DNA of 64,000 nt from Bacilli bacterium (GTDB taxonomy: Bacteria; Bacillota_I; Bacilli_A; RF39; UBA660), in assembly GCA_017438635.1 (NCBI GenBank), contig JAFRUZ010000016.1, forward strand, positions 8,627 through 72,626, written 5' to 3'. The position numbers and the translations under genes were made by a program. The notes beneath the pieces are model-generated. The model worked only from the letters and a program-made list of their open reading frames with translations, had not been told where the DNA came from and did no database searches. Every line of letters starts with the position of its first letter. Within the stretch, counting starts at the first letter, position 1. Below, in pieces: positions 7,546-31,400 of the stretch.

Positions 7546-7561
7546 TGTTTCACGTGAAACA
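7546..7561. promoter_or_regulatory. parS: parS site 1 (ParB/Spo0J centromere palindrome), perfect TGTTTCACGTGAAACA
   Basis: Exact 16-bp palindrome matching the Firmicute parS consensus TGTTNCACGTGAAACA; the palindrome extends to 7544-7563. Confidence 0.9.
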
Positions 7562-7576
7562 TAGTAAAAACACAAA

Positions 7577-7596
7577 ATTATTTCCCGGGAAATAAT
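7577..7596. promoter_or_regulatory. Noc-binding site (NBS) 1, ATTATTTCCCGGGAAATAAT
   Basis: Perfect 20-bp palindrome containing the B. subtilis NBS consensus (T)ATTTCCCGGGAAAT(A); identical to the copy at 8575-8594. Confidence 0.75.
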
Positions 7597-7731
7597 CAAA
7601 GTAAGAAAAATGTGCTTCCACAACATTTTTGCAAACAAGACACCCAAAAATGTAAAAAAATACAGACATGATTCAAAGAAAATACATAAATACAGTTAAC
7701 TTATTAACAATATAAACGTAAAAAAAATATA

Positions 7732-7747
7732 TGTTTCACGTGAAACA
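7732..7747. promoter_or_regulatory. parS: parS site 2, perfect
   Basis: TGTTTCACGTGAAACA; the palindrome extends to 24 bp (7728-7751). Confidence 0.9.
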
Positions 7748-7778
7748 TATACATCAAAACTAAACAAAACAAACAATA

Positions 7779-7794
7779 TGTTTCACGTGAAACA
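7779..7794. promoter_or_regulatory. parS: parS site 3, perfect
   Basis: TGTTTCACGTGAAACA, immediately downstream of the tadA stop codon (7796-7798). Confidence 0.9.
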
Positions 7795-7795
7795 T

Positions 7796-8233
7796 CTATT
7801 CCAATGTTTCACGTGAAACATCACCCCTAATATTCTTAAAAAAATTCTTTATAAGATTAGCATAATTATTATCATTAAGCTTTTCATAATTAATATTAGA
7901 AATATTAACATCCAAATTATCAGAATAATTAGATTCAAGTAAATAAACAACCTTTTTAATTCTTGATTCAGCAATTGCAGCCTCACACATCTTACATGGC
8001 TTTAAAGTAACATACATAATGCATTCATCCAAATACCAAGATCCAAGCTTCTTACATGCATCAATAATAGATAGAATTTCAGCATGATATACAGAAATAC
8101 CTAAAGTGTTTTTAACATTATGCGAAAAAGAAACAATCTTATCATTCATAACAATCACAGCGCCAACAGGAACATTTCCTTCATTATAAGCCTTTACTGC
8201 TTCATCAAAAGCTTTCTTCATATATTTATTCAT
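7796..8233 (-). CDS. tadA: tRNA-specific adenosine deaminase TadA
   Basis: CDA-fold zinc motifs HAE (VYHAEILSI) and PCKMC. Start placed at ATG 8233 (MNKYMKKAFDEA) behind the RBS AGAGGTGA. The track start at 8263 (MFHVKHRGDC) is simply parS site 5 read as codons. Confidence 0.9.
   Translation of the reverse strand: MNKYMKKAFDEAVKAYNEGNVPVGAVIVMNDKIVSFSHNVKNTLGISVYHAEILSIIDACKKLGSWYLDECIMYVTLKPCKMCEAAIAESRIKKVVYLLESNYSDNLDVNISNINYEKLNDNNYANLIKNFFKNIRGDVSRETLE
7805..7820. promoter_or_regulatory. parS: parS site 4, perfect, inside the last codons of tadA
   Basis: TGTTTCACGTGAAACA; read on the minus strand it encodes the C-terminal ..DVSRETLE of the tadA ORF. Confidence 0.9.
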
Positions 8234-8246
8234 ACAATCACCTCTA

Positions 8247-8262
8247 TGTTTCACGTGAAACA
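8247..8262. promoter_or_regulatory. parS: parS site 5, perfect, abutting the tadA ribosome-binding site
   Basis: TGTTTCACGTGAAACA; it ends 1 nt from the RBS complement at 8238-8245. Confidence 0.9.
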
Positions 8263-8312
8263 TATATATTCAAAACTTATTAACAATCATAAACTAAAAA
8301 ACAAATAAACAA

Positions 8313-8328
8313 TGTTTCACGTGAAACT
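8313..8328. promoter_or_regulatory. parS: parS site 6, 15/16 match (TGTTTCACGTGAAACT)
   Basis: One mismatch, at the last position. Confidence 0.8.
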
Positions 8329-8353
8329 ATAAAACAACAAAAATAGAATTGCA

Positions 8354-8369
8354 TGTTTCACGTGAAACA
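8354..8369. promoter_or_regulatory. parS: parS site 7, perfect
   Basis: TGTTTCACGTGAAACA, about 22 bp downstream of the SRP RNA 3' T-tract. Confidence 0.9.
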
Positions 8370-8390
8370 TATAGCATATCAATATAAACA

Positions 8391-8465
8391 AAAAGTGCAC
8401 ACACATAGAGGACCTTAAGGCTGCTATCTTCCGATCCTGACCTAGTTCAATCATATGTGTTGCAC
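8391..8465 (-). ncRNA. ffs: Signal recognition particle RNA, short (4.5S-like) form, ~75 nt
   Basis: The minus strand reads GTGCAACACATATGATTGAACTAGGTCAGGATCGGAAGATAGCAGCCTTAAGGTCCTCTATGTGTGTGCAC followed by TTTTT. The core AGGTCAGGATCGGAAGATAGCAGCC matches the universal SRP helix-8 motif (GGUCAGGUCCGGAAGGAAGCAGCC, GGAA tetraloop). The ends pair into a long closing helix, and a promoter lies directly upstream. The tadA-ffs-dnaX neighbourhood is conserved in Bacillus. Confidence 0.75.
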
Positions 8466-8471
8466 GAATTA

Positions 8472-8500
8472 ATAATACAATAAAGTACAAATAAAGTCAA
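8472..8500 (-). promoter_or_regulatory. Promoter of ffs (TTGACT - 17 nt - TATTAT)
   Basis: Reverse complement: -35 TTGACT (8495-8500), 17-nt spacer, -10 TATTAT (8472-8477), 6 nt before the first G of the SRP closing helix. Confidence 0.6.
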
Positions 8501-8509
8501 TACTCCCAA

Positions 8510-8525
8510 TGTTTCACGTGAAACA
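8510..8525. promoter_or_regulatory. parS: parS site 8, perfect
   Basis: TGTTTCACGTGAAACA, 10 bp upstream of the ffs -35 element. Confidence 0.9.
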
Positions 8526-8574
8526 TATACTTTTCTTCTAAAAAGTGCTCTCGTAATACATTTTTAAGAATCAT

Positions 8575-8594
8575 ATTATTTCCCGGGAAATAAT
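8575..8594. promoter_or_regulatory. Noc-binding site (NBS) 2, ATTATTTCCCGGGAAATAAT
   Basis: Identical 20-bp palindrome to 7577-7596, lying 5 bp beyond the gyrA terminator T-tract. Confidence 0.75.
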
Positions 8595-8599
8595 TCATC

Positions 8600-8632
8600 A
8601 AAAAAAAAGTGAATAGCATAATTACTATTCAC
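8600..8632 (-). terminator. Intrinsic terminator of gyrA
   Basis: Minus strand GTGAATAG-taattatg-CTATTCAC followed by T9; the stem overlaps the gyrA stop codon. Confidence 0.7.
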
Positions 8633-11087
8633 TTACAACATTATCAACAGTTTCCTCAGAATATTCCTCATCTGCCTTCTGAGTAATAGTAACAGAAGTA
8701 ACAGACTGATTATCCCTTAAATTCATCAATCTTACACCTTGAGTATTCCTACGTAATGTCGAAATCTTACCTACTTCAAGTCTAATAACAGTACCTTCGT
8801 CAGTAGTCATAATAACATCTTCATCCCCTATTACAGACTTAAATGCAATAATAAGACCATTCTTTTCAGTAATATTAAGAGCCTTAACTCCTTTTCCACC
8901 ACGATGAGTAAGCCTATATTCATCAGTTTCAGTCTTCTTACCATAACCCTTTTCAGTCACAACAAGAATAAGTTTCGAAGAATCAGCAATCTCTGCACCA
9001 ATCAAATAAGTATCAGACATATCAATTCCCTTAACTCCTGAAGCACTTCTACCCATAACACGTACTTCATTTTCATTAAATCTAACCATTCTACCAGCAT
9101 TTGAAGCCATAATAACCTCATTTTCACCAGAAGTTTTCTTAACACTAGCAAGCATATCGCCTTCCTTTAACGTAATAGCAATCTTACCAGTTTTACGTAT
9201 AGATTCAAATTCATCAACATCAGTTCTCTTAACAAGGCCATTTCTAGTAAAGAACATCAAATACTTAGAATCATCGTCTTTAGAAACAGGAATAATAGTA
9301 TTAACAATCTCATCCTTTTCCAAAGGCAAGATATTAACAATAGGAACACCCTTAGATTGCCTACTGAACTCTGGTATTTCATATCCCTTAACACGATAAA
9401 CCTTACCAAAATTACTAAAGAATAACAAATGATCATGTGTATCACAAGTTATTAACATTTCAACATAGTCTTCATCATTAGTAGACATACCCTTAATACC
9501 AACACCACCACGATTTTGACTACGATAAGTATCAGATACCAATCTCTTAATATAACCACGTTTAGTCATAGAAATAACAACATTATCATTAGGAATAAGA
9601 GATTCATCATCAATATAGTCAATAGCAGTCATATCAATATCAGTACGTCTTTCATCACTATATTTTTCTTTAATTTCAAGAAGTTCTTCCTTGATAATAG
9701 CTAAAACTCTCTCTTCAGAAGCAAGAATAGCCTTGTATTCAGTAATCTTTTCAAGAAGTTCAGCAAGTTCACTCTCAATTTTTTCCCTTTCAAGACCAGT
9801 AAGCCTTCTAAGTCTCATTTCAAGAATAGCATTTGCTTGAGTTTCAGTAAGACCAAATCTAGTCATTAAACCATTACGAGCAACCTCATCATCACGAGCA
9901 GCTCTGATAAGCTTAATAACTTCGTCTATATTATTAAGAGCTATTATATAGCCTTCCAAAATATGTACCCTTTTTTCAGCCTTATCAAGATCAAACTTAG
10001 TTCTACGAATAATAATTTCCTTTTGAAAATCAATATATTTAGAAATAATATCTTTAAGTCCTAAACTCTTAGGAACTCCTTGATCAAGCATCAAAAAGTT
10101 AATACCATAGTTTATTTGAAATTGCGTATGCTTATACAAATTGTTTAAAACAACTTGTGGATTAGCATCTCTTTTCAAAGTAATAGTAATCTTAATACCA
10201 TCCTTTAAATCAGTATGATAATCAGAAATACCATCTATAACCTTGTTATGAACAAGTTCCGCTACCTTATTCTTTAATTCAGAAGTATTAACACCATAAG
10301 GAACTTCATCAATAATTATATAGTTTTTACCATTTTTTTCCTCTATAGTAGCACGACTTCTAATAGTAATACTTCCCCTACCAGTCTCATAAGCCTTACG
10401 AATACCGCTATTACCAAGAATAATAGCACCAGTAGGAAAATCAGGTCCTTTAACATGTTTCATTAATTCATCCAAAGTAACCTCTGGATTATCAATATAC
10501 GCTACACAACCATCAATAACTTCCCCTAAATTATGTGGTGGTATATTTGTAGCCATACCAACAGCAATACCCATAGTACCATTAACCAAAATATTAGGAA
10601 ATCTACTAGGTAAAATACTAGGTTCAACCTCAGATTCATCAAAATTTGGTTCAAAATCAACAGTATTCTTATTAATATCACGCAATAATTCTAATGACAT
10701 TCTAGAAAGTCTAGATTCAGTATAACGCATCGCTGCTGCTCCATAACCTTCAATATTACCAAAGTTTCCATGTCCATCAACAAGCATATAACGATAATTG
10801 AAGTCTTGAGCCATTCTAACCATAGCTTCATAGATTGAACTATCTCCATGAGGGTGATATTTACCCATAACATCCCCAACAATTCTAGCACTCTTCTTAT
10901 GAGGTTTTTCAGGAGTATAACCAGATTCGTACATAGAATAAAGAATTCTACGATGAACAGGTTTAAGACCATCTCTTAAATCAGGAAGAGCACGTGAAAC
11001 AATAACACTCATTGAATATTCTAGGAATGATGTTTCAATTTCATTAACTATATTATTTTCTTGTAATCTATCTCTATTATCATCCAT
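8625..11087 (-). CDS. gyrA: DNA gyrase subunit A
   Basis: 820 aa; [24 protein letters not shown], the QRDR-region [13 protein letters not shown], and beta-pinwheel repeats. Confidence 0.97.
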
Positions 11088-14233: not shown

Positions 14234-14704
14234 TTAACCGTTTTTTTTACTATTTTTCCTATTATTTGAGACAGCTTCTAACATATTACATCTAAAAATC
14301 TGATTCTTAATAGAAAAATAAGGACAATCTACAATAATAAAATTATCATTAATAAATATAATTTTGGACTTTTTATTATATTTTTCAACATGTTTTATAT
14401 TTTTATAAGACAACCACCCTACACTTTCTGATTGAATAGCTTCAGTAGGAAAAAATATAAGTTTTTGTGATTCTTCAACAATAACAGGAGTTTTATATAT
14501 ACTTCCAAGTATATCTTTAGAACCAAGCATTCTACCCTCTAAACTACTACCAAAGTACTTACAACTATGTTCCATAACCTCATAAGGAGTCTCTTTTACT
14601 ATGTATTCGTCATCCTTTTCAATAATTCTAGTACTCTGCTCATCAAAAGGAATAATAGCCAAAGTACTATCATTTATCTCATATTTAATATAATTCACCC
14701 CCAA
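14234..14704 (-). CDS. comK: Competence transcription factor ComK family protein
   Basis: 156 aa. Blocks YEINDSTLAIIP, IIEKD..Y.V, SCKYFGSSLEGR, KTPVIV, LIFFPT and VGWLSY align with B. subtilis ComK (YEVNGATIAVLP, SCRFFGSSYAGR, KPPIMV, IFLFPT, CGWISH) as I recall that sequence. Confidence 0.8.
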   Translation of the reverse strand: MGVNYIKYEINDSTLAIIPFDEQSTRIIEKDDEYIVKETPYEVMEHSCKYFGSSLEGRMLGSKDILGSIYKTPVIVEESQKLIFFPTEAIQSESVGWLSYKNIKHVEKYNKKSKIIFINDNFIIVDCPYFSIKNQIFRCNMLEAVSNNRKNSKKNG

Positions 14705-16070: not shown

Positions 16071-17456
16071 TTATGTTAATTGCTTTTCAATGTTGTTAAT
16101 TGCATCACTAAGATCCTTATTAATCTTCATCTCTCTTTCAATTTTATTACAAGCATGAATCACAGTAGCATGGTTCTTTCCAGAAAACTCAATACCTATT
16201 CTTTCAAATGATTCATCAGTAAGTTTTCTACATAAATACATAGCAACTTGCCTTGGTATTGCTAGATTTGGAGTTCTTTTCTTAGATTTCATATCCTCAA
16301 AAGAAATCTTATAAAAATTAGCAACACCTTTTTGAATTCTTCGAATATCGTTTTGATCAGTTACAATATCTTTTTTAGTAAAATCTTTTAAAGCCTCCAT
16401 AGCAAAGTCTAAAGTAATATCAGTAACCCCCATAATTGCTGAATAAGCGACAAGCCTTGTAATAGAACCTTCAAGTTGACGAACATCGTTTCCAACATTC
16501 GAAGCAATAAAAGAAATAACATCATCATTTATAACAATATCTTCTCTTTTTAACTTTTTCTTGATAATAGCCACCTTTAAATCATAATCTGGAGGGCTAA
16601 TATCAACTTGTAATCCCCATGCAAATCTAGTTCTAAGCCTATCTTCAAGGACTTTTAAATCTTCAGGAGATCTATCAGAAGATACAATTATTTGCTTGCT
16701 GTCATTGTATAAATTGTTAAAAGTGTGGAAAAATTCTTGTTGTGTCTTCTCTGCTCCTCCTAAAAACTGAATATCGTCAATTAATAAAACATCTACATTT
16801 CGATATTTATTTTTGAAAAACGTAGCATAATCTAAATTATTAAAACTACTACCCTTTCTTGCTAATCCAGTAAAATCATTCATAAAATCATCACTGGTTA
16901 CATATAAAACACGTTTATTAAACTTATTTTCTATATAATTGCCAATTGCATGCATTAAATGAGTCTTACCTAGGCCACTATTTCCATATATAAATAAAGG
17001 ATTATATAAAGTACCAGGGTTTTCTGCTACAGCAAGAGCAGCAGCTTGAGCAAATTTATTAGACTCCCCTACTACAAAACTTTCAAAAGTATAGTTTTTA
17101 TTTAAATTAGAATTATGATCTTTAACATAAGTAGATTGCACTTCATTTCCTTTTTCTACTAGGTTTTCAGTAGGATTACTATTATTATGTTCCAAAAAAT
17201 CTGCTACATTATCCTTTAATATATATTTAATGTTATCAACATTATTTGTTAATATCTCATTAAAACTATCAATAATTAAATCTTTATAATTTCTATCAAT
17301 GTGATTTTTATACCACATAATAGGTATTACCAGTCTTACACTAGTATCTTCGACCCCTATAAAATCAATATTTTTAAACCATGTGTCATAAGATAATGGG
17401 TCAACAATATTACTAATATTATTTAAAACTTTAGACCATAAAATTTTATCATCCAT
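16071..17456 (-). CDS. dnaA: Chromosomal replication initiator DnaA
   Basis: 461 aa; AAA+ motifs GNSGLGKTHLMHA and LLIDDIQFL; domain IV IPRQVAMYLCRKLT...GKNHATVIHA. Confidence 0.97.
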   Translation of the reverse strand: MDDKILWSKVLNNISNIVDPLSYDTWFKNIDFIGVEDTSVRLVIPIMWYKNHIDRNYKDLIIDSFNEILTNNVDNIKYILKDNVADFLEHNNSNPTENLVEKGNEVQSTYVKDHNSNLNKNYTFESFVVGESNKFAQAAALAVAENPGTLYNPLFIYGNSGLGKTHLMHAIGNYIENKFNKRVLYVTSDDFMNDFTGLARKGSSFNNLDYATFFKNKYRNVDVLLIDDIQFLGGAEKTQQEFFHTFNNLYNDSKQIIVSSDRSPEDLKVLEDRLRTRFAWGLQVDISPPDYDLKVAIIKKKLKREDIVINDDVISFIASNVGNDVRQLEGSITRLVAYSAIMGVTDITLDFAMEALKDFTKKDIVTDQNDIRRIQKGVANFYKISFEDMKSKKRTPNLAIPRQVAMYLCRKLTDESFERIGIEFSGKNHATVIHACNKIEREMKINKDLSDAINNIEKQLT

Positions 17457-17799: not shown

Positions 17800-18276
17800 T
17801 TATTTAGTATTAAATATAAAAACATCCTCTCCTCCATCATTTTTAATAATGTAATTACCATTAGTATATTCATTTATTACATTTTTCCAAAATGAATAAG
17901 CAACAGGATTATTTGCCATAGGTTGAACTTCCCAAAAACCAGGAAACATATTAAAAATATCATGTGCTACTCTTTGTCCAATATGATTTCTTCTATATAT
18001 AGGCATAATCAAAAATTCTGCTACAGATTTACCTTCTTTATTAAATTTTAAGTTTTCATTAACAAGAACCATTCCTAAAAAATTTTTGTTATTTTTTATA
18101 AAATAAGCATTTCTATCATTATCAGAAAAATAATTATCAAACCAATTATATTCAAAAATACAATTTTCATTAATTTCATTATCAACATAAAATGATCCAT
18201 CATATAAAGCATATTGTAATAACCTATATAATTTATCTTTTTCTTCTAATTTAGCTTCAACTATTTCATAATCCAT
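17800..18276 (-). CDS. GNAT-family acetyltransferase
   Basis: 158 aa; the acetyl-CoA binding-like segment IMPIYRRNHIGQRVAHDIF; lies between dnaA and rpmH. Confidence 0.7.
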   Translation of the reverse strand: MDYEIVEAKLEEKDKLYRLLQYALYDGSFYVDNEINENCIFEYNWFDNYFSDNDRNAYFIKNNKNFLGMVLVNENLKFNKEGKSVAEFLIMPIYRRNHIGQRVAHDIFNMFPGFWEVQPMANNPVAYSFWKNVINEYTNGNYIIKNDGGEDVFIFNTK

Positions 18277-20620: not shown

Positions 20621-21478
20621 ATGGTAACACAAGAACAATATATAAAAGACTCACATAAAATAGCCGTCAATGCGTTAAAAAACTTTTTTAGAAATATAGA
20701 TTTTAATGAAGAAGCATTTAATCATCTTTATAATATAAAAACTTACATGGTGGAGTTTCTACCACCAGATGTAGAAGCAATGTATATACATGAAGAAAGT
20801 ATAAAAGAAGATCCTATGGATAATACTATAGCAATTAACTCAAGATTATTAAAAAAGTATATTGATATAATAAATAAAGATAAATCAATATATAATAAAA
20901 TGGTATTACAACTAGCTTCTTCATTAGTTCATGAAATGATACATGCAAATAGAGTAATAGTTTTGGATTATGTAACAAAAGAAAAGGATTTAAAGAATCC
21001 GAGTAAGCCTCCAATTGAAACATGGCATGCAAGATCAAATTTAGTTTCTGAAATCTATCATAAAACAAACAAATTAAGTGAGGAAGAAGAAAGTGATAGA
21101 ATATATTATCAAGGAGATTTCGAAGAAACAATAACAGAAGCCTTAGCGGACATGATAATGCTAACAAAAAATGATAATGTATTCGATTTGGAAGAAACAA
21201 ACGACATAATACAAAAAAGCAATGCTGATATGATAATAAAAATAGGTTCCCAAATACTAAAAGATATGGGAATAGAAACAATAAAATGGTTTATGACAGC
21301 AGCTTATGAAAACAGTTACTATGATAAATTTGAACATACATTTGGAGATAAATATGACGATTTACTATATGATGTAAGCGATATATACACATCAGTATAT
21401 TGTAATAATCAAATAGATAGAAACAGTGTCAACAATATAAAAAGAATACTAGAAGAAAAAACAAATAAAAGAAGATAA
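20621..21478 (+). CDS. Hypothetical cytoplasmic protein with an HExxH zinc-metallopeptidase-like motif
   Basis: 285 aa; LVHEMIHANR plus downstream EETITEALAD; no signal peptide; RBS GGAGA; own terminator. Confidence 0.6.
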   Translation: MVTQEQYIKDSHKIAVNALKNFFRNIDFNEEAFNHLYNIKTYMVEFLPPDVEAMYIHEESIKEDPMDNTIAINSRLLKKYIDIINKDKSIYNKMVLQLASSLVHEMIHANRVIVLDYVTKEKDLKNPSKPPIETWHARSNLVSEIYHKTNKLSEEEESDRIYYQGDFEETITEALADMIMLTKNDNVFDLEETNDIIQKSNADMIIKIGSQILKDMGIETIKWFMTAAYENSYYDKFEHTFGDKYDDLLYDVSDIYTSVYCNNQIDRNSVNNIKRILEEKTNKRR

Positions 21479-21552: not shown

Positions 21553-22896
21553 ATGAATGATACTATTTGTGCAATATCAACAACTCTTGGGGTAGGGGCA
21601 ATATCAATAGTAAGAGTAAGTGGTAAAGAAGCTATAGAAAAAGTTAATAATATAACTAATATAGACTTAACAAAGAAAAAAAGTCATACTATTTCTTATG
21701 CATATATAAAAGATAACAACGAAATAATAGATGAAGTACTTATATCAATAATGAAGGCTCCAAAAACATTTACAACAGAAGATACAGTAGAAATAAACTG
21801 TCATGGTGGTATAGCAACTACAGAAAAAGTACTAGAATTGCTTTTAAAACAAGGAATCCGCCTTGCAGAAACTGGAGAATTTACAAAAAGAGCCTTTCTA
21901 AATGGCAGAATAGATTTAACAGAAGCAGAAGCAGTAAATGATCTAATCAACACCAAAACAGATAAAGCAAGAAAAATAGTAATAAACAATTTAAAGGGAA
22001 CAACAAGCAATAAAATACGAAAATTAAGAGAAAGACTAGTAAAAATAATAAATAACATCGAAGTAAACATAGATTATCCAGAATACCAAGATATAGAAGA
22101 AATGACAGTTGAAAAAATAAAAGAAGAAATAGGAAGTATAGAAGAAGAACTAGAAAGTATAATAACTAACTCAGAAAACAGTAAAATAATAACAAATGGT
22201 ATAAATATAGCTATAATAGGTAGACCCAACGTAGGAAAAAGTAGTATTTTAAACAAACTAATCGAAGAAGATAAAGCAATAGTAACAAATATACCAGGAA
22301 CAACTAGGGATATAGTAGAAGCATCATTCAACTTAAACGGTATAACCTTAAATCTAATAGATACCGCAGGAATAAGAGAAACAGAAGATATAGTAGAACA
22401 AATTGGTGTAAAAAAATCAAAAGAAGCACTAGAAAAAGCAGATTTAGTACTTCTAATTCTAAATAACAATGAAAAACTAACAAAAGAAGATAAAGAATTA
22501 TTAGAGATATCAAAGAATAAAAAAAGAATAATAGTAGTAAATAAAACAGATTTAGAGAAAAAACTTGATATAAAAGATGAAAACATAGTATATACCAATA
22601 CTATTGAAGAAAAAGGAATAGAAGAACTTTTAGATAAAATAAGTGAATTATATAAATTAGAACAACTAGAAACAAATGATTTCTATTACGTATCAACAAT
22701 AGAACAGTTAAATAAAATAAAAAGTACTAGAAATAACATAAAAGATATAAAAGCAGGATTAAAAGAAAATATATCAATAGATATGTTAGAAATAGATCTA
22801 AGAGAAATATGGCAAACACTTGGTGAAGTAATAGGAGAAACATATACAGAAGAACTTTTAGATAATTTATTTAAAAACTTCTGCGTAGGAAAGTAG
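21553..22896 (+). CDS. mnmE: tRNA modification GTPase MnmE
   Basis: Start at ATG 21553 (MNDTICAISTT) behind AGGAGGA; G-domain GRPNVGKSS, DTAGIR, NKTD; C-terminal FCVGK. Confidence 0.95.
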   Translation: MNDTICAISTTLGVGAISIVRVSGKEAIEKVNNITNIDLTKKKSHTISYAYIKDNNEIIDEVLISIMKAPKTFTTEDTVEINCHGGIATTEKVLELLLKQGIRLAETGEFTKRAFLNGRIDLTEAEAVNDLINTKTDKARKIVINNLKGTTSNKIRKLRERLVKIINNIEVNIDYPEYQDIEEMTVEKIKEEIGSIEEELESIITNSENSKIITNGINIAIIGRPNVGKSSILNKLIEEDKAIVTNIPGTTRDIVEASFNLNGITLNLIDTAGIRETEDIVEQIGVKKSKEALEKADLVLLILNNNEKLTKEDKELLEISKNKKRIIVVNKTDLEKKLDIKDENIVYTNTIEEKGIEELLDKISELYKLEQLETNDFYYVSTIEQLNKIKSTRNNIKDIKAGLKENISIDMLEIDLREIWQTLGEVIGETYTEELLDNLFKNFCVGK

Positions 22897-23630
22897 TGAA
22901 AAAAATGAATAATAAAAAAGTGAGTAATGAAAGATTAAATAACCATAAAACAAAAACAAATACAATGATAAGTGAGACCAGCCAGGCCATAAAAGCACTA
23001 AGTCAAATTAATAACAAATATTCTTCTATAAACAATGTTTCAGAAATATATAGAGATAAAATATATAACATATATAATAATTTTGAAAAACAATCTATAG
23101 ACTTCTGGGGTAACGATTTTCAATTAAGAGAAGCAATACTATTTCATTTAAGATTAAAATCACTTGAAAGCACAGTATATTTAAAAATAATAATAGAAAA
23201 AATAGTACTATCACCAAATATAATAGTAACTAGTAGAGCATTAAACAATTTAACATATCAAAGAATGGAAAAAACAATCAATGAAATAAATAAAATAGGT
23301 GATTATATAGTTAACTATGACTTAGAAAAGGATTTAAATGAAACATTAATTGATTACTTTGAAAACTTACCAGTTGAATTTGAAAAACCACAATCTATTA
23401 CAAAAAAATATCAAAAAATGAAAAACAATATTGAAAAACTAGGATTAACAAGCATATTAGAAGAAAAAGAAGAAGAAATACTAAAATTAATTGAACAAAA
23501 AGAAGAAAAATGTCAAAAATATGAAGAAAACAAAGACAATATACTAAAACTATTATTTGAGCTAGAAGATATAGAGTTTGAAGCCAAAGAAAAAAGGCAT
23601 AAAAAAAGTCCTATAAAAATAAGAAAGTAA
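22896..23630 (+). CDS. Hypothetical protein, Asn/Lys/Glu-rich with a predicted coiled-coil C-terminus
   Basis: 244 aa (GTG 22896, or more likely ATG 22905). No recognisable motif. Co-directional with mnmE, and no terminator separates them. Confidence 0.55.
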   Translation: MKKMNNKKVSNERLNNHKTKTNTMISETSQAIKALSQINNKYSSINNVSEIYRDKIYNIYNNFEKQSIDFWGNDFQLREAILFHLRLKSLESTVYLKIIIEKIVLSPNIIVTSRALNNLTYQRMEKTINEINKIGDYIVNYDLEKDLNETLIDYFENLPVEFEKPQSITKKYQKMKNNIEKLGLTSILEEKEEEILKLIEQKEEKCQKYEENKDNILKLLFELEDIEFEAKEKRHKKSPIKIRK

Positions 23631-23641
23631 AAGGAGAAACA

Positions 23642-24133
23642 ATGAATAAAGAATTAATAAAATATAAAGAACAATTAATAAAAAATGGTTTTATGGTACT
23701 AGATGAAACTGGAAAAATAAAAGATTTAGCAACAAAATCAGAAGTAATTGAATCAATAAAAAAAGAAGAATTAATCATAGAATCAATAGAAAGACAAATA
23801 ACAGATGGAAATAAAGGATTAAAAGGAAAAATAAGATTAGTAAAACCATTAAACAGTTTAGTAGAAAAAACATTATTAAACCTAGATATAGTACAATTAG
23901 AAATAAACGAAGAAAATATAAAAATACAAGAATATATAAAACTTAATGACTTTGTATCAGAATTACAAAATAGAGGTTTCACTTTAGGACTTACAAGTCA
24001 AGAAGAAGTACAAGAAGAAAGTAAAATAGATAAACTAGTAAATAAAGTAAATAAAACTAGAACTTTAACAGGATATAAAATAGTAATAGTTCCAAAAGAT
24101 AGAGTATTAGAAGATTCAAGTAGGAATAGATAA
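23642..24133 (+). CDS. Hypothetical protein
   Basis: 163 aa; RBS AAGGAGA; no recognisable motif; followed by a terminator. Confidence 0.55.
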   Translation: MNKELIKYKEQLIKNGFMVLDETGKIKDLATKSEVIESIKKEELIIESIERQITDGNKGLKGKIRLVKPLNSLVEKTLLNLDIVQLEINEENIKIQEYIKLNDFVSELQNRGFTLGLTSQEEVQEESKIDKLVNKVNKTRTLTGYKIVIVPKDRVLEDSSRNR

Positions 24134-26821: not shown

Positions 26822-28216
26822 ATGAACTTAGAAAAAGAAATTTTTGACATAGCGTTACAAGATTTAATACCAAATAGGTTCCAACCACGTGAAATATTTA
26901 ACGATAAAGAACTTTCAGAATTAGCAGATTCAATAAAACAACACGGAGTAATACAACCAATAATAGTTCGTAAAGTTGGAGATAAATATGAAATAATTGC
27001 AGGAGAACGTCGTTTTAGGGCTTCTCAACTTGCTGGAAAAGAAACTATCCCTGCTTTAGTAAGAGATATAGATGATAAAGAAGCTGCAAAAATAGCATTG
27101 CTTGAAAACCTTCAAAGAAGTAATCTAACACCAATAGAAGAAGCAAAAACATATCAAACAATACTAAAAATAGATAATATAACTCAAGATGAATTAGCAA
27201 ATAATCTAGGAAGATCACAATCAACAATAGCTAATAAATTAAGATTGTTAACATTGGCAGAAGAAGTTCAAACAGCTCTATTAAACTCACAAATATCAGA
27301 AAGACATGCAAGAAGTCTATTAGGACTAACAAATGAACAACAAGTAGCATTACTTCATAAAACAATAGAAGAAAAGTTAACAGTTAGACAATTGGATGAA
27401 GAAATAATGAAATTAACAGGTAGGGCACCTGAAAATAACGAAGTAGACTACACTTTAGCAGAAGGAGAAACAAATATGAATAATAATTTTCCAAATATGA
27501 ACAACACTATAGGAGTTTCACAAGTTACAATGCCTAATAACGTTAATACAGAAAGCCCAGTAATAACTGAAAATAATGTGCCAGTAGAACCTGTTATAAA
27601 TATACCAACAGTGGATATTCCGCCAGCAGTAGAAGAAAATGTACAACCAGTAAATGAAGTATTTCAACCAGCACCTGAAAATAATAACCCAATAGAAAAC
27701 ACACCAAATACTGAAGTAGTTGCTCCGCCAACAATAGAAATGCCAGTAATGGATAATAATCTAAATCCATTACCAGAAGCAACTGAAACAAATGTAATAG
27801 AAGAAAATCCACAAGAAGAACCTATTATGGAACAACCTATTACTGAACCAGTAATAGAACCAAATTCAAATGAACCAACAGTAGAACAAAGGCCTCAAAT
27901 TACAGAAGCAGGAAACAATGAACCACAAGTAGCAGCAGCAAGAGAAGAAAATATATTTGATAAATTAAGAGTAACTAGAGAAGAAACAGAACAAGAAAAC
28001 AAATTTGATTTAAAAACACCAGATTTAAATATGGTAATAGAAAATCAAATAAATTCCCAAGAAGAACAACAAACAGATATGTATGATATGAGATTTGCGA
28101 TAAATAATTTTAGACAAGCTGTTCAAAATACTGAAAAATTTGGATTCAAAGTAAATACAACTGAAAATGATCTTGGAGATAAATATCAATTAATAATAGA
28201 AATAGACAAAAAATAA
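26822..28216 (+). CDS. noc: ParB-family nucleoid occlusion protein (Noc-like) with a long low-complexity insertion
   Basis: 464 aa. ParB box GERRFRA. HTH/recognition region RSQSTIANKLRLLTL...ISERHARSLL resembles B. subtilis Noc (QSTIANKLRLL, ITERHARAL). The C-terminus RFAINNFRQAVQNTEKFGFKVNT...YQLIIEIDKK resembles the Noc C-terminal domain. Position after rsmG. Residues ~200-415 are a Pro/Glu/Asn/Val-rich linker. Confidence 0.8.
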   Translation: MNLEKEIFDIALQDLIPNRFQPREIFNDKELSELADSIKQHGVIQPIIVRKVGDKYEIIAGERRFRASQLAGKETIPALVRDIDDKEAAKIALLENLQRSNLTPIEEAKTYQTILKIDNITQDELANNLGRSQSTIANKLRLLTLAEEVQTALLNSQISERHARSLLGLTNEQQVALLHKTIEEKLTVRQLDEEIMKLTGRAPENNEVDYTLAEGETNMNNNFPNMNNTIGVSQVTMPNNVNTESPVITENNVPVEPVINIPTVDIPPAVEENVQPVNEVFQPAPENNNPIENTPNTEVVAPPTIEMPVMDNNLNPLPEATETNVIEENPQEEPIMEQPITEPVIEPNSNEPTVEQRPQITEAGNNEPQVAAAREENIFDKLRVTREETEQENKFDLKTPDLNMVIENQINSQEEQQTDMYDMRFAINNFRQAVQNTEKFGFKVNTTENDLGDKYQLIIEIDKK

Positions 28217-28243: not shown

Positions 28244-29584
28244 TTAATACCACATATCAGTATACAAACCATCCTCTTTATAATAATCATCTAAAAGAAC
28301 AGTTTGAACAAACTCATCAGCAGCCTCTGCAAAAGTGTAAGTATTAATAACAGGACCACCAAAAGTCCAAAGTGATTCTGCTACATAAACATGTTCATCA
28401 TCAATACCAGCAACAATAGCAATATGTCCCCAAACACCAAGTAAATCACCGGCTTTTACTTTACCTGATTTGAACAATTTAACAGAAGTATCAACCTTTT
28501 CTCCACCAATATCATTAATTTCATTAGTATCTTCAAGATTATCTCCAGCACCTTTGTCACCAGGATCATATCCGCCATTAACTATACTCCATGAAACAAA
28601 ACCACTACAATCAAGACCATTAGGTTTATATTGACCTTTCTTAAATACAGTTCCCCAATCTTCATAATTTCGAAGAGGGCATCCCCATATTGCAGGACCT
28701 GCAAAAGAGTATTTTAAATCTTTAAATTTTGATTCGTGTAAATAAAGTCCCTTATGATAATACCTTCCTTCACCATCAGCATTATGCATACCACCATCAA
28801 TTCTACCGTTTTCGAAGAAATATTCAACTTGATAAGGGAAATCAAGCATTAAAAATCTAATAGATTCAACAACAGCAGCACGTGTGCCATAACCACCAAC
28901 TGCTTCAATTTTACTTTTTAAAATATTATCAATCTTCTGAGATTCTACCTTAGAATAATGATTACAAGGTAAATTTGGTTTATTCTTATTAAACTTTTTA
29001 GGTCTCTTAGTAATCAAATTAGTAACTTCAACTTCAAAAGTCTTAGAATAACTATCATTAACAGTCATTTTAACTTTTGTTTTACCAACCTTCTTGGCAA
29101 CTAGTTTATTACCCTTAACAACAACCACTTTATTATTGGAAGCTTTATAAACAATATTTTTCTTATTACCAATAATAGTAAGATTAGGATTTATCTTAGT
29201 AGAATCATTAACTGCTAAGTATATTTTTTTAGGTAAACTATCACTAACTACTAAATTATCTATAGCAAACTTTTGTATAAAAACATTATATTTTTTAATA
29301 TAAACATCAGTAAGATTACTATCTACCTTTAACTGACACTCATTATTAACAACATCCACCCAGCCTGTAGCAACAGAACTATCTTTACTACTGTAACCAC
29401 ACCTAACTCCGTCTTCTAAATTAGTTATCTTTAAAACAAGCTCATCTTTGCCAGACTCCTTAATACTTAAATTATTTAAAACATCTAATTTATAGAAAGA
29501 GTTTAAAAAATAATAAACAGTAATTAAGCAACCACCTATAATAAAGAAGATGAAAGCGAAAAAAATTAAAACTCCCTTTTTCAT
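28244..29584 (-). CDS. Secreted/anchored cell-wall hydrolase: N-terminal TM/signal, Ig-like (Big_2-like) domain, NlpC/P60-type Cys peptidase domain
   Basis: 446 aa; hydrophobic N-terminus; LDCSGFVSW (catalytic Cys) and GHIAIVAG (His). Confidence 0.7.
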   Translation of the reverse strand: MKKGVLIFFAFIFFIIGGCLITVYYFLNSFYKLDVLNNLSIKESGKDELVLKITNLEDGVRCGYSSKDSSVATGWVDVVNNECQLKVDSNLTDVYIKKYNVFIQKFAIDNLVVSDSLPKKIYLAVNDSTKINPNLTIIGNKKNIVYKASNNKVVVVKGNKLVAKKVGKTKVKMTVNDSYSKTFEVEVTNLITKRPKKFNKNKPNLPCNHYSKVESQKIDNILKSKIEAVGGYGTRAAVVESIRFLMLDFPYQVEYFFENGRIDGGMHNADGEGRYYHKGLYLHESKFKDLKYSFAGPAIWGCPLRNYEDWGTVFKKGQYKPNGLDCSGFVSWSIVNGGYDPGDKGAGDNLEDTNEINDIGGEKVDTSVKLFKSGKVKAGDLLGVWGHIAIVAGIDDEHVYVAESLWTFGGPVINTYTFAEAADEFVQTVLLDDYYKEDGLYTDMWY

Positions 29585-29752: not shown

Positions 29753-30532
29753 ATGGGGAAAGTAATTTCGTTAATAAACCAAAAGGGTGGAGTAGGAAAA
29801 ACAACGACCAGTATTAACTTAGCGGCATCACTTGCACTTTTAGGAAAAAGAGTATTATTAATAGATTTAGATCCACAATGTAATGCGACAACAGGAATAG
29901 GTTTGAATAAAGGTGATATAGAAAAAAGTATTTATAATGTTTTTAATGGAACATCAACAATAGAAGATGCAATAGTAAAGACAAAATATAAAAACTTATA
30001 TGTTTTACCAGCAAATATAAATTTAGCAGGAATTGACATTGAATTAGAACAGTCAAGAGAATACACAGGAGTATCAAAAGCGGAAAGACTAAAAAAACAC
30101 ATAGATAAGATTAGAGACAACTATGACTACATATTAATTGATTGTCCTCCAGCACTTGGAATAATCACAACAAACGCTTTAACAGCATCAGATTCAGTAA
30201 TAATTCCAGTACAATGTGAATTCTTTGCACTTGAAGGAATAACACAATTATTAAAAGCAATAATGTATACACAAGCAAATCTAAATCCAAACTTATCAAT
30301 AGAAGGGGTACTTCTAACAATGCTAGATGCTAGAACTAATTTAGGCCTTGAAGTAGTTGAAGAAATAAGAAGCTACTTTAAAGATAAAGTATATAACACA
30401 ATAATTCCAAGATTAATCAGATTAACAGAAGCACCATCACACGGAAAACCAATTGTGGCTTACGATCCAAAATCACGTGGATCTGAAGCATATTTAAATT
30501 TAGCGAAAGAGGTGATATTAGCAAATGAATGA
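29753..30532 (+). CDS. parA: Chromosome partitioning ATPase ParA/Soj
   Basis: 259 aa; the deviant Walker A NQKGGVGKTTT. Confidence 0.95.
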   Translation: MGKVISLINQKGGVGKTTTSINLAASLALLGKRVLLIDLDPQCNATTGIGLNKGDIEKSIYNVFNGTSTIEDAIVKTKYKNLYVLPANINLAGIDIELEQSREYTGVSKAERLKKHIDKIRDNYDYILIDCPPALGIITTNALTASDSVIIPVQCEFFALEGITQLLKAIMYTQANLNPNLSIEGVLLTMLDARTNLGLEVVEEIRSYFKDKVYNTIIPRLIRLTEAPSHGKPIVAYDPKSRGSEAYLNLAKEVILANE

Positions 30533-31400
30533 ACAACCTAAAAGAAGAGCATTAGGACGCGGGCTTGAAGAATTATTTAATATTGAGGACATAAACTACG
30601 ACAAAATAGAAGAAAAAATAATGGAAACAGCTGATGAAAGCGAAATTAAAGAAATTCCAATCGAAAAACTAAGAGTAAATCCATATCAACCAAGAAAAAC
30701 ATTTAATGAAGAATCTCTTAGAGAACTTGCAGAATCAATAAAAGAACATGGAGTAATACAACCAATAATAGTTAAAAAGAGCATAAAAGACTATGAAATA
30801 GTTGCAGGAGAAAGAAGATATAGAGCTTCAAAACTTGCAGGTAAAACAACAATTCCATGTATTATAAGAGATTTTACTGATGAACAAATGATGGAAATTG
30901 CGGTTCTTGAAAACTTACAAAGAGAAGATTTAAACTCTATAGAAGAAGCTTTAGGTATAGAAGCACTGATGAGAAATTTAAATTTAACTCAAGAACAAGT
31001 AGCAAAAAGAATAGGAAAAAGTAGAAGTTACATAACAAATATGTTAGGACTTTTAAATCTTCCTGCAGAAGTAAAAGAATTAGTAAAAAAAGGAAAAATA
31101 TCAACAAGTCATGCTAGAACATTATCAAAAATAGAAGACAAAGAAAAAATAGTAGAACTTGCTGATAAAATAGTAAACGAAAACTTAAATGTAAGACAAA
31201 TAGAAGAAGTATCAAAAGAAACTCCAAAAAGAGTAAAACAACAACATACAGAAAAAAATAGAGAATATCAACAATTAGAACAAGAATTAACAGATTATTT
31301 AGGAACAAGAGTAAAAATAAAGAATAAAAAGATAGAGATTAATTATGAAAATGACAATGATTTAAACAGAATACTAGAAATAATTAATTTTAATAAGTAG
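30525..31400 (+). CDS. parB: Chromosome partitioning protein ParB/Spo0J
   Basis: 291 aa; N-terminal RALGRGLEELF, GERRYRA box, HTH KSRSYITNMLGLLNL...ISTSHARTL; overlaps the parA stop. Confidence 0.95.
   Translation: MNEQPKRRALGRGLEELFNIEDINYDKIEEKIMETADESEIKEIPIEKLRVNPYQPRKTFNEESLRELAESIKEHGVIQPIIVKKSIKDYEIVAGERRYRASKLAGKTTIPCIIRDFTDEQMMEIAVLENLQREDLNSIEEALGIEALMRNLNLTQEQVAKRIGKSRSYITNMLGLLNLPAEVKELVKKGKISTSHARTLSKIEDKEKIVELADKIVNENLNVRQIEEVSKETPKRVKQQHTEKNREYQQLEQELTDYLGTRVKIKNKKIEINYENDNDLNRILEIINFNK

Follow-up and report, generated by a model that had tools for sequence, protein, structure and literature searches.

In a window of 64,000 nucleotides from a bacterium of the class Bacilli (positions 8,627 to 72,626 of contig JAFRUZ010000016.1; the window is this whole stretch), two identical palindromes carrying the Noc-binding site (NBS) lie among the parS sites presumed to be bound by the partition protein ParB, and in this lineage NBS gather within the origin-proximal parS cluster or close to it and, as far as sampled, are not scattered over the chromosome arms. 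We consider it probable (roughly 0.7) that the palindromes are the loading sites of a Noc-like ParB paralogue, whose gene is 18 kb away, and are part of a conserved composite ParB/Noc centromere, the paralogue being dedicated to the origin and not a chromosome-wide membrane tether. Noc is the textbook nucleoid occlusion factor of Gram-positive bacteria, and the model of its action was built on dispersed NBS and a membrane-targeting helix; here a widespread lineage appears to be without both, yet keeps the exact NBS sequence among its parS sites. The features on which this reading depends are as follows.

7546–8525: cluster of eight parS sites, starting at 7546, 7732, 7779, 7805, 8247, 8313, 8354 and 8510
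7577–7596 (16-bp core 7579–7594): NBS-1, palindrome, 15 bp from parS1 and upstream of dnaX
8575–8594: NBS-2, palindrome identical to NBS-1, a few bp beyond the gyrA terminator and 49 bp from parS8
26822–28216, plus strand: Noc-like ParB paralogue of 464 amino acids, between rsmG and soj-spo0J, the canonical position of noc
30525–31400, plus strand: canonical ParB/Spo0J of 291 amino acids, the presumed parS binder

NBS and parS sites in the window and in related genomes

The 20-bp sequence ATTATTTCCCGGGAAATAAT is a perfect palindrome which occurs exactly twice in the window, against no match expected from shuffled sequences even with three mismatches tolerated. Both copies hold the exact 16-bp NBS consensus core (16 of 16 positions matching), TATTTCCCGGGAAATA, which is the NBS duplex used and crystallised by Jalal et al. 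2020 and in each half-site departs from parS at positions 1 and 6. The original prediction had thus given the sequence, the positions, the gaps to parS1 and parS8 and the nature of the core correctly, and its observation that the window holds no other copy could be extended, as no further NBS with up to three mismatches was found in the window or in 80.9 kb of the parent contig (European Nucleotide Archive ERZ28018714:k141_1389188, 120.7 kb). In the same DNA the hexamer CCCGGG is confined to the two NBS. The palindromes had also been placed at the two ends of the array; they do adjoin the first and the last parS, but NBS-1 is located between parS1 and parS2 and hence not strictly outside the array.

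The parS sequence is TGTTTCACGTGAAACA, with the extended logo A-TGTTTCACGTGAAACA-T and one mismatch in the site at 8313, and the scan of the window returned 16 strand matches, that is, eight sites, against 0.07 expected. Seven of the eight fall in the gaps between dnaX, tadA, the gene for the small signal recognition particle (SRP) RNA and gyrA, while parS4 is inside tadA, and the cluster of parS and NBS together spans about 1 kb of the interval from gyrA to dnaX, some 9 kb away from oriC. No tandem repeats were detected from which the window array might have originated, and the array of L207, assembled from an independent sample, is identical to it.

Three parS sites have a particular relation to tadA. 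parS3 and parS4 jointly form a 19-pair hairpin at the tadA end (7778–7821, minus strand), which scored as terminator-like. parS4 (7805–7820) lies within the last tadA codons (..DVSRETLE and stop), and the embedded parS is kept in relatives (L006, L008), and parS5 (8247–8262) is immediately upstream of the tadA start.

The original prediction had proposed looking for the same juxtaposition of parS and NBS in related genomes, and it is indeed present there. We performed a DnaN-anchored scan with one genome per species, which gave 58 loci from metagenome-assembled genomes of uncultured gut Bacilli (labelled Bacilli, Tenericutes, Erysipelotrichaceae, Clostridium sp. CAG:710, Firmicutes bacterium CAG:582 and Ca. 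Ventrenecus; DnaN identity to the window 44–88%) and 22 Bacillaceae loci. Of the 58 gut loci, 41 extend as far as a parS cluster that directly follows gyrA, and a perfect NBS was found inside this cluster (within 300 bp) in 26 of the 41 and within 3 kb in 12 more, which amounts to 38 of 41; altogether, for 91 of the 95 perfect NBS of these loci the distance to the parS cluster is at most 3 kb. None of the 22 Bacillaceae loci has parS or NBS at this position. For 103 of 177 NBS a parS is no more than 100 bp away, with broad spacings (17–39 and 48–69 bp) in which no fixed phasing and no single preferred distance could be recognised. Strict alternation of parS and NBS was seen in several relatives, and in others NBS are one-sided or inside dnaX. 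Two loci carry the pair as a tandem unit, of 105 bp in 6.1 copies in L195 (2440–3081) and of 119 bp in 4.6 copies in L108 (2791–3339), at 92–94% identity.

The closest relative, L006, has the layout of the window, the order being terminator, NBS, parS, SRP RNA, parS and tadA, more parS, NBS and parS, and dnaX, and NBS-1 has its equivalent there in the same context, TTTGATTATTTCCCGGGAAATAATTTT. When the window, L006 and L008 were aligned, NBS was invariant while spacers and flanks carried indels and the parS copy number varied. The NBS logo of the clade is extended to AAAT-TATTTCCCGGGAAATA-ATTT, so that conservation covers a palindrome of 22–24 bp. Furthermore, many relatives have an extra NBS within dnaX (for example L006:20641, L009:12119, L010:19947 and L029:19780), translated as IISREII, or YFPGN in some, in the otherwise variable linker of DnaX; at about 6440 the dnaX of the window reads VISDDEV in place of IISREII and this NBS is lost. 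Combined together, these comparisons of sequence established that the NBS-type palindromes are conserved and under selection.

To see NBS beyond these loci, a metagenome collection was scanned for the perfect 16-mer, which gave at least 120 stretches, 56 of those listed having a GC content of 33% or less. Among the matches listed, 46 of the 56 low-GC stretches hold homologues of the genes of the window's dnaA-to-pth block, with NBS recurring in the gaps between gyrA, tadA and dnaX, inside dnaX, beside pth, where gyrB meets recF and following jag. For a further three the gene is mfd, metG/tatD or of the rsmI type, which brings about 49 of 56 into the origin-proximal block, while two adjoin polA and the others have no assignment; mfd and tatD were found in this block on the window's own contig, whereas metG and the rsmI-type gene are presumably part of it, going by the gene order of B. 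subtilis. Thus, among the matches listed, the great majority of perfect NBS of the lineage fall within some 25 kb around oriC. An even spread of dozens of NBS, against which two copies here would be unremarkable, is not what is seen in the part of the genome that was sampled. High-GC matches to the 16-mer had no parS nearby and random flanks and were treated as unrelated or chance. An argument against dispersal from there being one NBS stretch per long contig was dropped, since L097 and L062 proved to be the same 138-kb contig, with only some of the sites listed.

The Noc-like paralogue and neighbouring genes

The Noc-like protein matched the Pfam families ParB_N (121 bits) and HTH_ParB (107 bits), and the motifs of its N-terminal cytidine triphosphate (CTP) domain, GERRFR and ENLQR, are intact and invariant among homologues. 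It scored 294.1 bits on NCBIfam nucleoid_noc (TIGR04285), below the curated cut-off of 315, and the solved structures that it matches best are those of Noc (7ng0, 200 bits). At the helix-turn-helix positions numbered 173, 179, 184 and 201 in Caulobacter it has Q-K-T-R, three of the four matching the Q-K-K-R of Noc. Jalal et al. 2020 reported that Q173 reads A1 and R201 reads C6, given lysine at 179 or 184; with Q173, R201 and a lysine at 179, NBS specificity of the Noc-like protein is therefore predicted, and the protein is expected to bind NBS. The original prediction that a Noc-like paralogue is encoded nearby was thus borne out, down to the residues that would read NBS. The ParB of the window has R-M-N-S at the four specificity positions, together with an N-terminal peptide of the ParA-interaction type (RALGRGLEELF) and a ParB_C dimerisation domain. 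ParB_C gave no Pfam match in the Noc-like protein, whose C-terminal domain is of the Noc type: in the alignment with our reference, the Noc of Parageobacillus (locus L066), its C-terminus YDMRFAINNFRQAVQ...KYQLIIEIDKK aligns with RDMRIAVNTIRQSL...YYQITIRIPKK.

What the Noc-like protein does not have is the membrane-targeting helix. Adams et al. 2015 found an N-terminal amphipathic membrane helix of about 10 amino acids in every Noc examined, and nucleoid occlusion in B. subtilis depends on it. The amphipathic helix MKHPFSRFFSFG of Parageobacillus Noc, with its spacer, is absent from the Noc-like protein in the alignment, where the latter begins about 34 columns after the helix. The N-terminus of the Noc-like protein has a net charge of -2, and a cationic amphipathic segment was looked for in its linker and none was found. 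All of the 120 closest database homologues, which come from gut metagenomes and are 350–553 amino acids long, start with MNLEKE.. and have PNRFQPR at residue 17 and no membrane-targeting helix, and all of them carry Q-K-(T/N/S)-R; likewise, the Noc-like genes on those contigs of the relatives in the scan which reach far enough are helix-less and specify Q-K-(T/S/N)-R, while the Bacillaceae Noc proteins have QKKR at these positions. Tethering of the origin to the membrane by the known Noc mechanism, which had been put forward as one possibility, is not supported, given this lack of the N-terminal amphipathic helix in the protein and in 120 of 120 homologues.

The protein also has a linker which is long, disordered, acidic and variable in length. 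Compared with Parageobacillus Noc it contains an insertion of about 190 alignment columns, and a disordered insert is also present in the Noc-like proteins of all relatives examined. AlphaFold modelled residues 1–200 and 417–464 confidently, the C-terminal domain being predicted as a folded helix plus hairpin, and residues 206–372 (about 170 residues) as disordered, with a predicted local distance difference test score (pLDDT) below 50. One short motif of the linker, ENIFDKLR (residues 376–383; window 27947–27970), is nearly invariant in homologues, was modelled with only modest confidence, and may be a partner-binding motif. That the membrane helix has moved into the linker was unsupported, as ENIFDKLR has a low hydrophobic moment and a net charge of about zero.

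The remaining features of the segment, in which the minus-strand order is gyrA, small SRP RNA gene, tadA and dnaX, and of the origin region are the following.

8625–11087, minus strand: gyrA
8607–8634, minus strand: intrinsic terminator of gyrA, followed by a T-run
8379–8474, minus strand: small SRP RNA gene (RF00169, 60.3 bits), inside the array
7796–8233, minus strand: tadA, inside the array, with parS4 in its last codons
5831–7453, minus strand: dnaX, within which many relatives have extra NBS
16071–17456, minus strand: dnaA
17457–18659: approximate oriC region between dnaA and rnpA, with a sign change of GC skew
29753–30532, plus strand: ParA/Soj ATPase, by domain match

The GC skew switches sign near 18 kb, beside dnaA-dnaN. 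Between dnaN and recF lies an open reading frame (ORF) of the ComK family (14234–14704, minus strand; Pfam ComK, 124 bits), with homologues of 29–46% identity at the same place in many relatives. An ORF of 446 amino acids (28244–29584, minus strand) is inserted between the noc-like gene and soj and runs opposite to them; its product has a membrane anchor at the N-terminus, while the C-terminal region is NlpC/P60-like by eye and gave no Pfam match. Four ORFs without a Pfam family (17800–18276 on the minus strand, 20621–21478, 22896–23630 and 23642–24133), all of them gene calls in a public assembly, sit in the otherwise highly conserved block dnaA-rnpA-yidC-jag-mnmE-mnmG, where the presumed oriC gap contains one of the four. 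The parent contig beyond the window ends (L206 and L209) encodes MreB, MraY, SpoIIR, SpoVT, a PP2C phosphatase and AgrB. Judging from MreB, MraY, SpoIIR and SpoVT, the organism is probably a walled rod and possibly a spore-former, in which positioning of the origin would matter.

Proposed role and alternative explanations

We propose that both proteins would act as CTP-dependent sliding clamps, ParB loading at parS and the Noc-like protein at NBS, and since parS and NBS are tens of bp apart both clamps would occupy the same few kb of origin DNA in a mixed nucleoprotein complex. With no membrane helix and with a long linker bearing a conserved motif, the Noc-like protein would most likely be an origin-dedicated accessory clamp which acts through the linker or its motif and not by membrane tethering. 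What it adds to the partition complex could be the recruitment of a partner, a crowding or occluding effect on the origin, or a means of controlling the activity of ParB/SMC or DnaA. A combined ParB/Noc loading hub by the origin, as suggested in the original prediction, is strongly backed by the co-clustering of parS and NBS across a broad clade. The fuller form of the proposal, in which the paralogue is a second origin-dedicated CTP clamp co-assembling with ParB on a composite, interleaved centromere, its linker and ENIFDKLR recruiting a partner or shielding or regulating the origin, and in which this is either a new function of Noc or a preserved early stage, is tentative, and we would put it at slightly less than even odds.

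A number of points weigh against the proposed composite centromere. The NBS specificity of the Noc-like protein rests on four residues, of which the one at 184 is T, S or N where known Noc proteins have a near-invariant K. A few of the listed low-GC NBS lie elsewhere, such as those adjoining polA on long low-GC contigs (L106:7782 and L177:887), which are perfect, have the flanks of the clade's extended consensus and may be genuine rare dispersed sites. The distribution of NBS was sampled in about 1 Mb of origin-proximal DNA of relatives, in 81 kb of the window's own contig and in the random sample of perfect 16-mers, and mid-arm DNA may carry weaker dispersed NBS. In 12 relatives a single NBS lies 1.6–2.4 kb from the parS array, so that tight interleaving is not obligatory. 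Finally, the downstream function of the Noc-like clamp is conjecture, the candidates being confinement of ParB/SMC, occlusion or crowding local to the origin, and an influence on initiation like that of S. aureus Noc.

Of the other explanations, the one closest to the established model is classical nucleoid occlusion, in which many NBS would be dispersed, the two palindromes would merely be their origin-proximal members, and Noc would tether DNA to the membrane somehow. It would account for a site core which is the same as in B. subtilis and S. aureus, for the canonical rsmG-noc-soj-spo0J position of the gene and for the listed low-GC NBS that map outside the origin block. But it is hard to reconcile with the lack of more NBS (up to three mismatches) in 81 kb, with the placing of 91 of 95 perfect NBS of the relatives within 3 kb of the parS cluster and of about 49 of 56 listed low-GC stretches in one origin-proximal gene block, and with the absence from all homologues of the helix which the mechanism requires, and we regard it as highly unlikely. 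Alternatively, the palindromes might not be Noc sites at all: they could form a second class of ParB sites, serve as the operator of a different regulator, fold as a hairpin or terminator in RNA, or be a remnant of CCCGGG restriction avoidance. A perfect palindrome could suit many dimeric binders, and one copy indeed adjoins a terminator while the other is near a promoter-like element for dnaX. The core, however, matches NBS at 16 of 16 positions within a conserved palindrome of 22–24 bp, and the sites co-occur on the same contigs with a Noc paralogue of the Q/K/R type, in contrast to ParB, in which position 173 is R and position 201 a small residue. A role as terminator or operator was rejected because relatives carry the site within coding sequence (dnaX, mfd). 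This group of explanations appears very improbable indeed.

Tightly bound proteins block ParB clamps, and NBS adjoin the first and the last parS in the window and in L006, L053, L062 and L063. Both would suit a boundary, by analogy with RicO/ricS, at which the Noc-like protein confines the sliding of ParB, and hence SMC loading, to an origin segment; the RicO preprint (2026) speculates that the origin-bound protein restricts ParB sliding. In many relatives, though, NBS alternate with every parS or are one-sided, which is unlike a flanking insulator, and a clamp that slides off its own site would make a poor static roadblock. Placement at the array ends as an insulator, raised in the original prediction, is no general rule either, as the NBS of relatives are interleaved, one-sided or in dnaX, and we consider a boundary of this kind unlikely. 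Control of replication initiation would have the Noc-like protein spread over the approximately 9 kb from the array to dnaA/oriC and modulate initiation as Noc does in S. aureus, where it restrains DnaA-dependent initiation and spreads 8–10 kb from its sites. The distance of the array from oriC and the extra NBS which some relatives have nearer to oriC (gyrB/recF junction, after jag) would be in keeping with this. The S. aureus mechanism, however, is unknown and not linked to origin-proximal sites, NBS follow parS and not the DnaA-box regions, and the oriC of the window itself contains no NBS, and we consider control of initiation quite unlikely.

If the composite centromere is true, the lineage would show that the duplication from ParB to Noc has been put to use beyond chromosome-wide occlusion, and may have preserved an early stage of Noc evolution, centromere-bound before the membrane helix and dispersed sites were gained, unless this is a new function. 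It would also offer a natural example of two paralogous CTP clamps loading tens of bp apart, and would bear on clamp traffic, cross-talk, insulation and the co-evolution of DNA-binding specificity with site distribution.

Comparison with known systems

With the Noc/NBS systems of B. subtilis and S. aureus the present one shares the core TATTTCCCGGGAAATA, the CTP motifs, Q173, K179 and R201, the Noc-type C-terminal domain and the position of the gene between rsmG and soj-spo0J. It differs in that the protein of this clade has no membrane helix, carries T, S or N at 184 and has a disordered insert of 100–300 residues, and in that its whole-protein score stays below the NCBIfam cut-off for Noc (294 against 315 bits). 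NBS are scattered around the chromosome in B. subtilis, and 41 of them are spread over about 1.4 Mb in S. aureus, whereas here they are few (two in the window), concentrated at the parS cluster near oriC and, in the clade, extended to AAAT-core-ATTT. By descent and by the sequence of the site the system is Noc/NBS, but it fails the defining feature of the membrane helix. No prior description of Noc proteins without the helix was found in the literature searched, the coverage of which was incomplete.

The segment is also a chromosomal ParABS system, with a dense origin-proximal cluster of eight parS about 9 kb from oriC, canonical ParA (Soj) and ParB (Spo0J) with the expected domains nearby, and presumed clamp loading. 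It is unlike other such systems in having a second, paralogue-specific class of site interleaved with parS at distances of tens of bp. The original prediction had held this arrangement to be undescribed, and in agreement with it no report of interleaved parS and NBS, or of any second site class interleaved in a chromosomal centromere, was found in the same, incompletely covered literature.

In B. subtilis, RacA is an origin-region-specific DNA-binding protein with sites of its own, ram. In S. aureus, RicO has its own sites, ricS, clustered by the origin alongside parS, and was proposed to organise or anchor the origin and to modulate ParB/SMC (2026 preprint). Both belong to unrelated families and are not ParB/CTP clamps; moreover, ricS sites are 5–12 kb from parS, against tens of bp for the NBS described here, and RicO, unlike the Noc-like protein, has an amphipathic membrane helix. 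In function the Noc-like protein may resemble origin-specific accessory binders such as RicO/ricS, but it would do so as a clamp of the ParB family.

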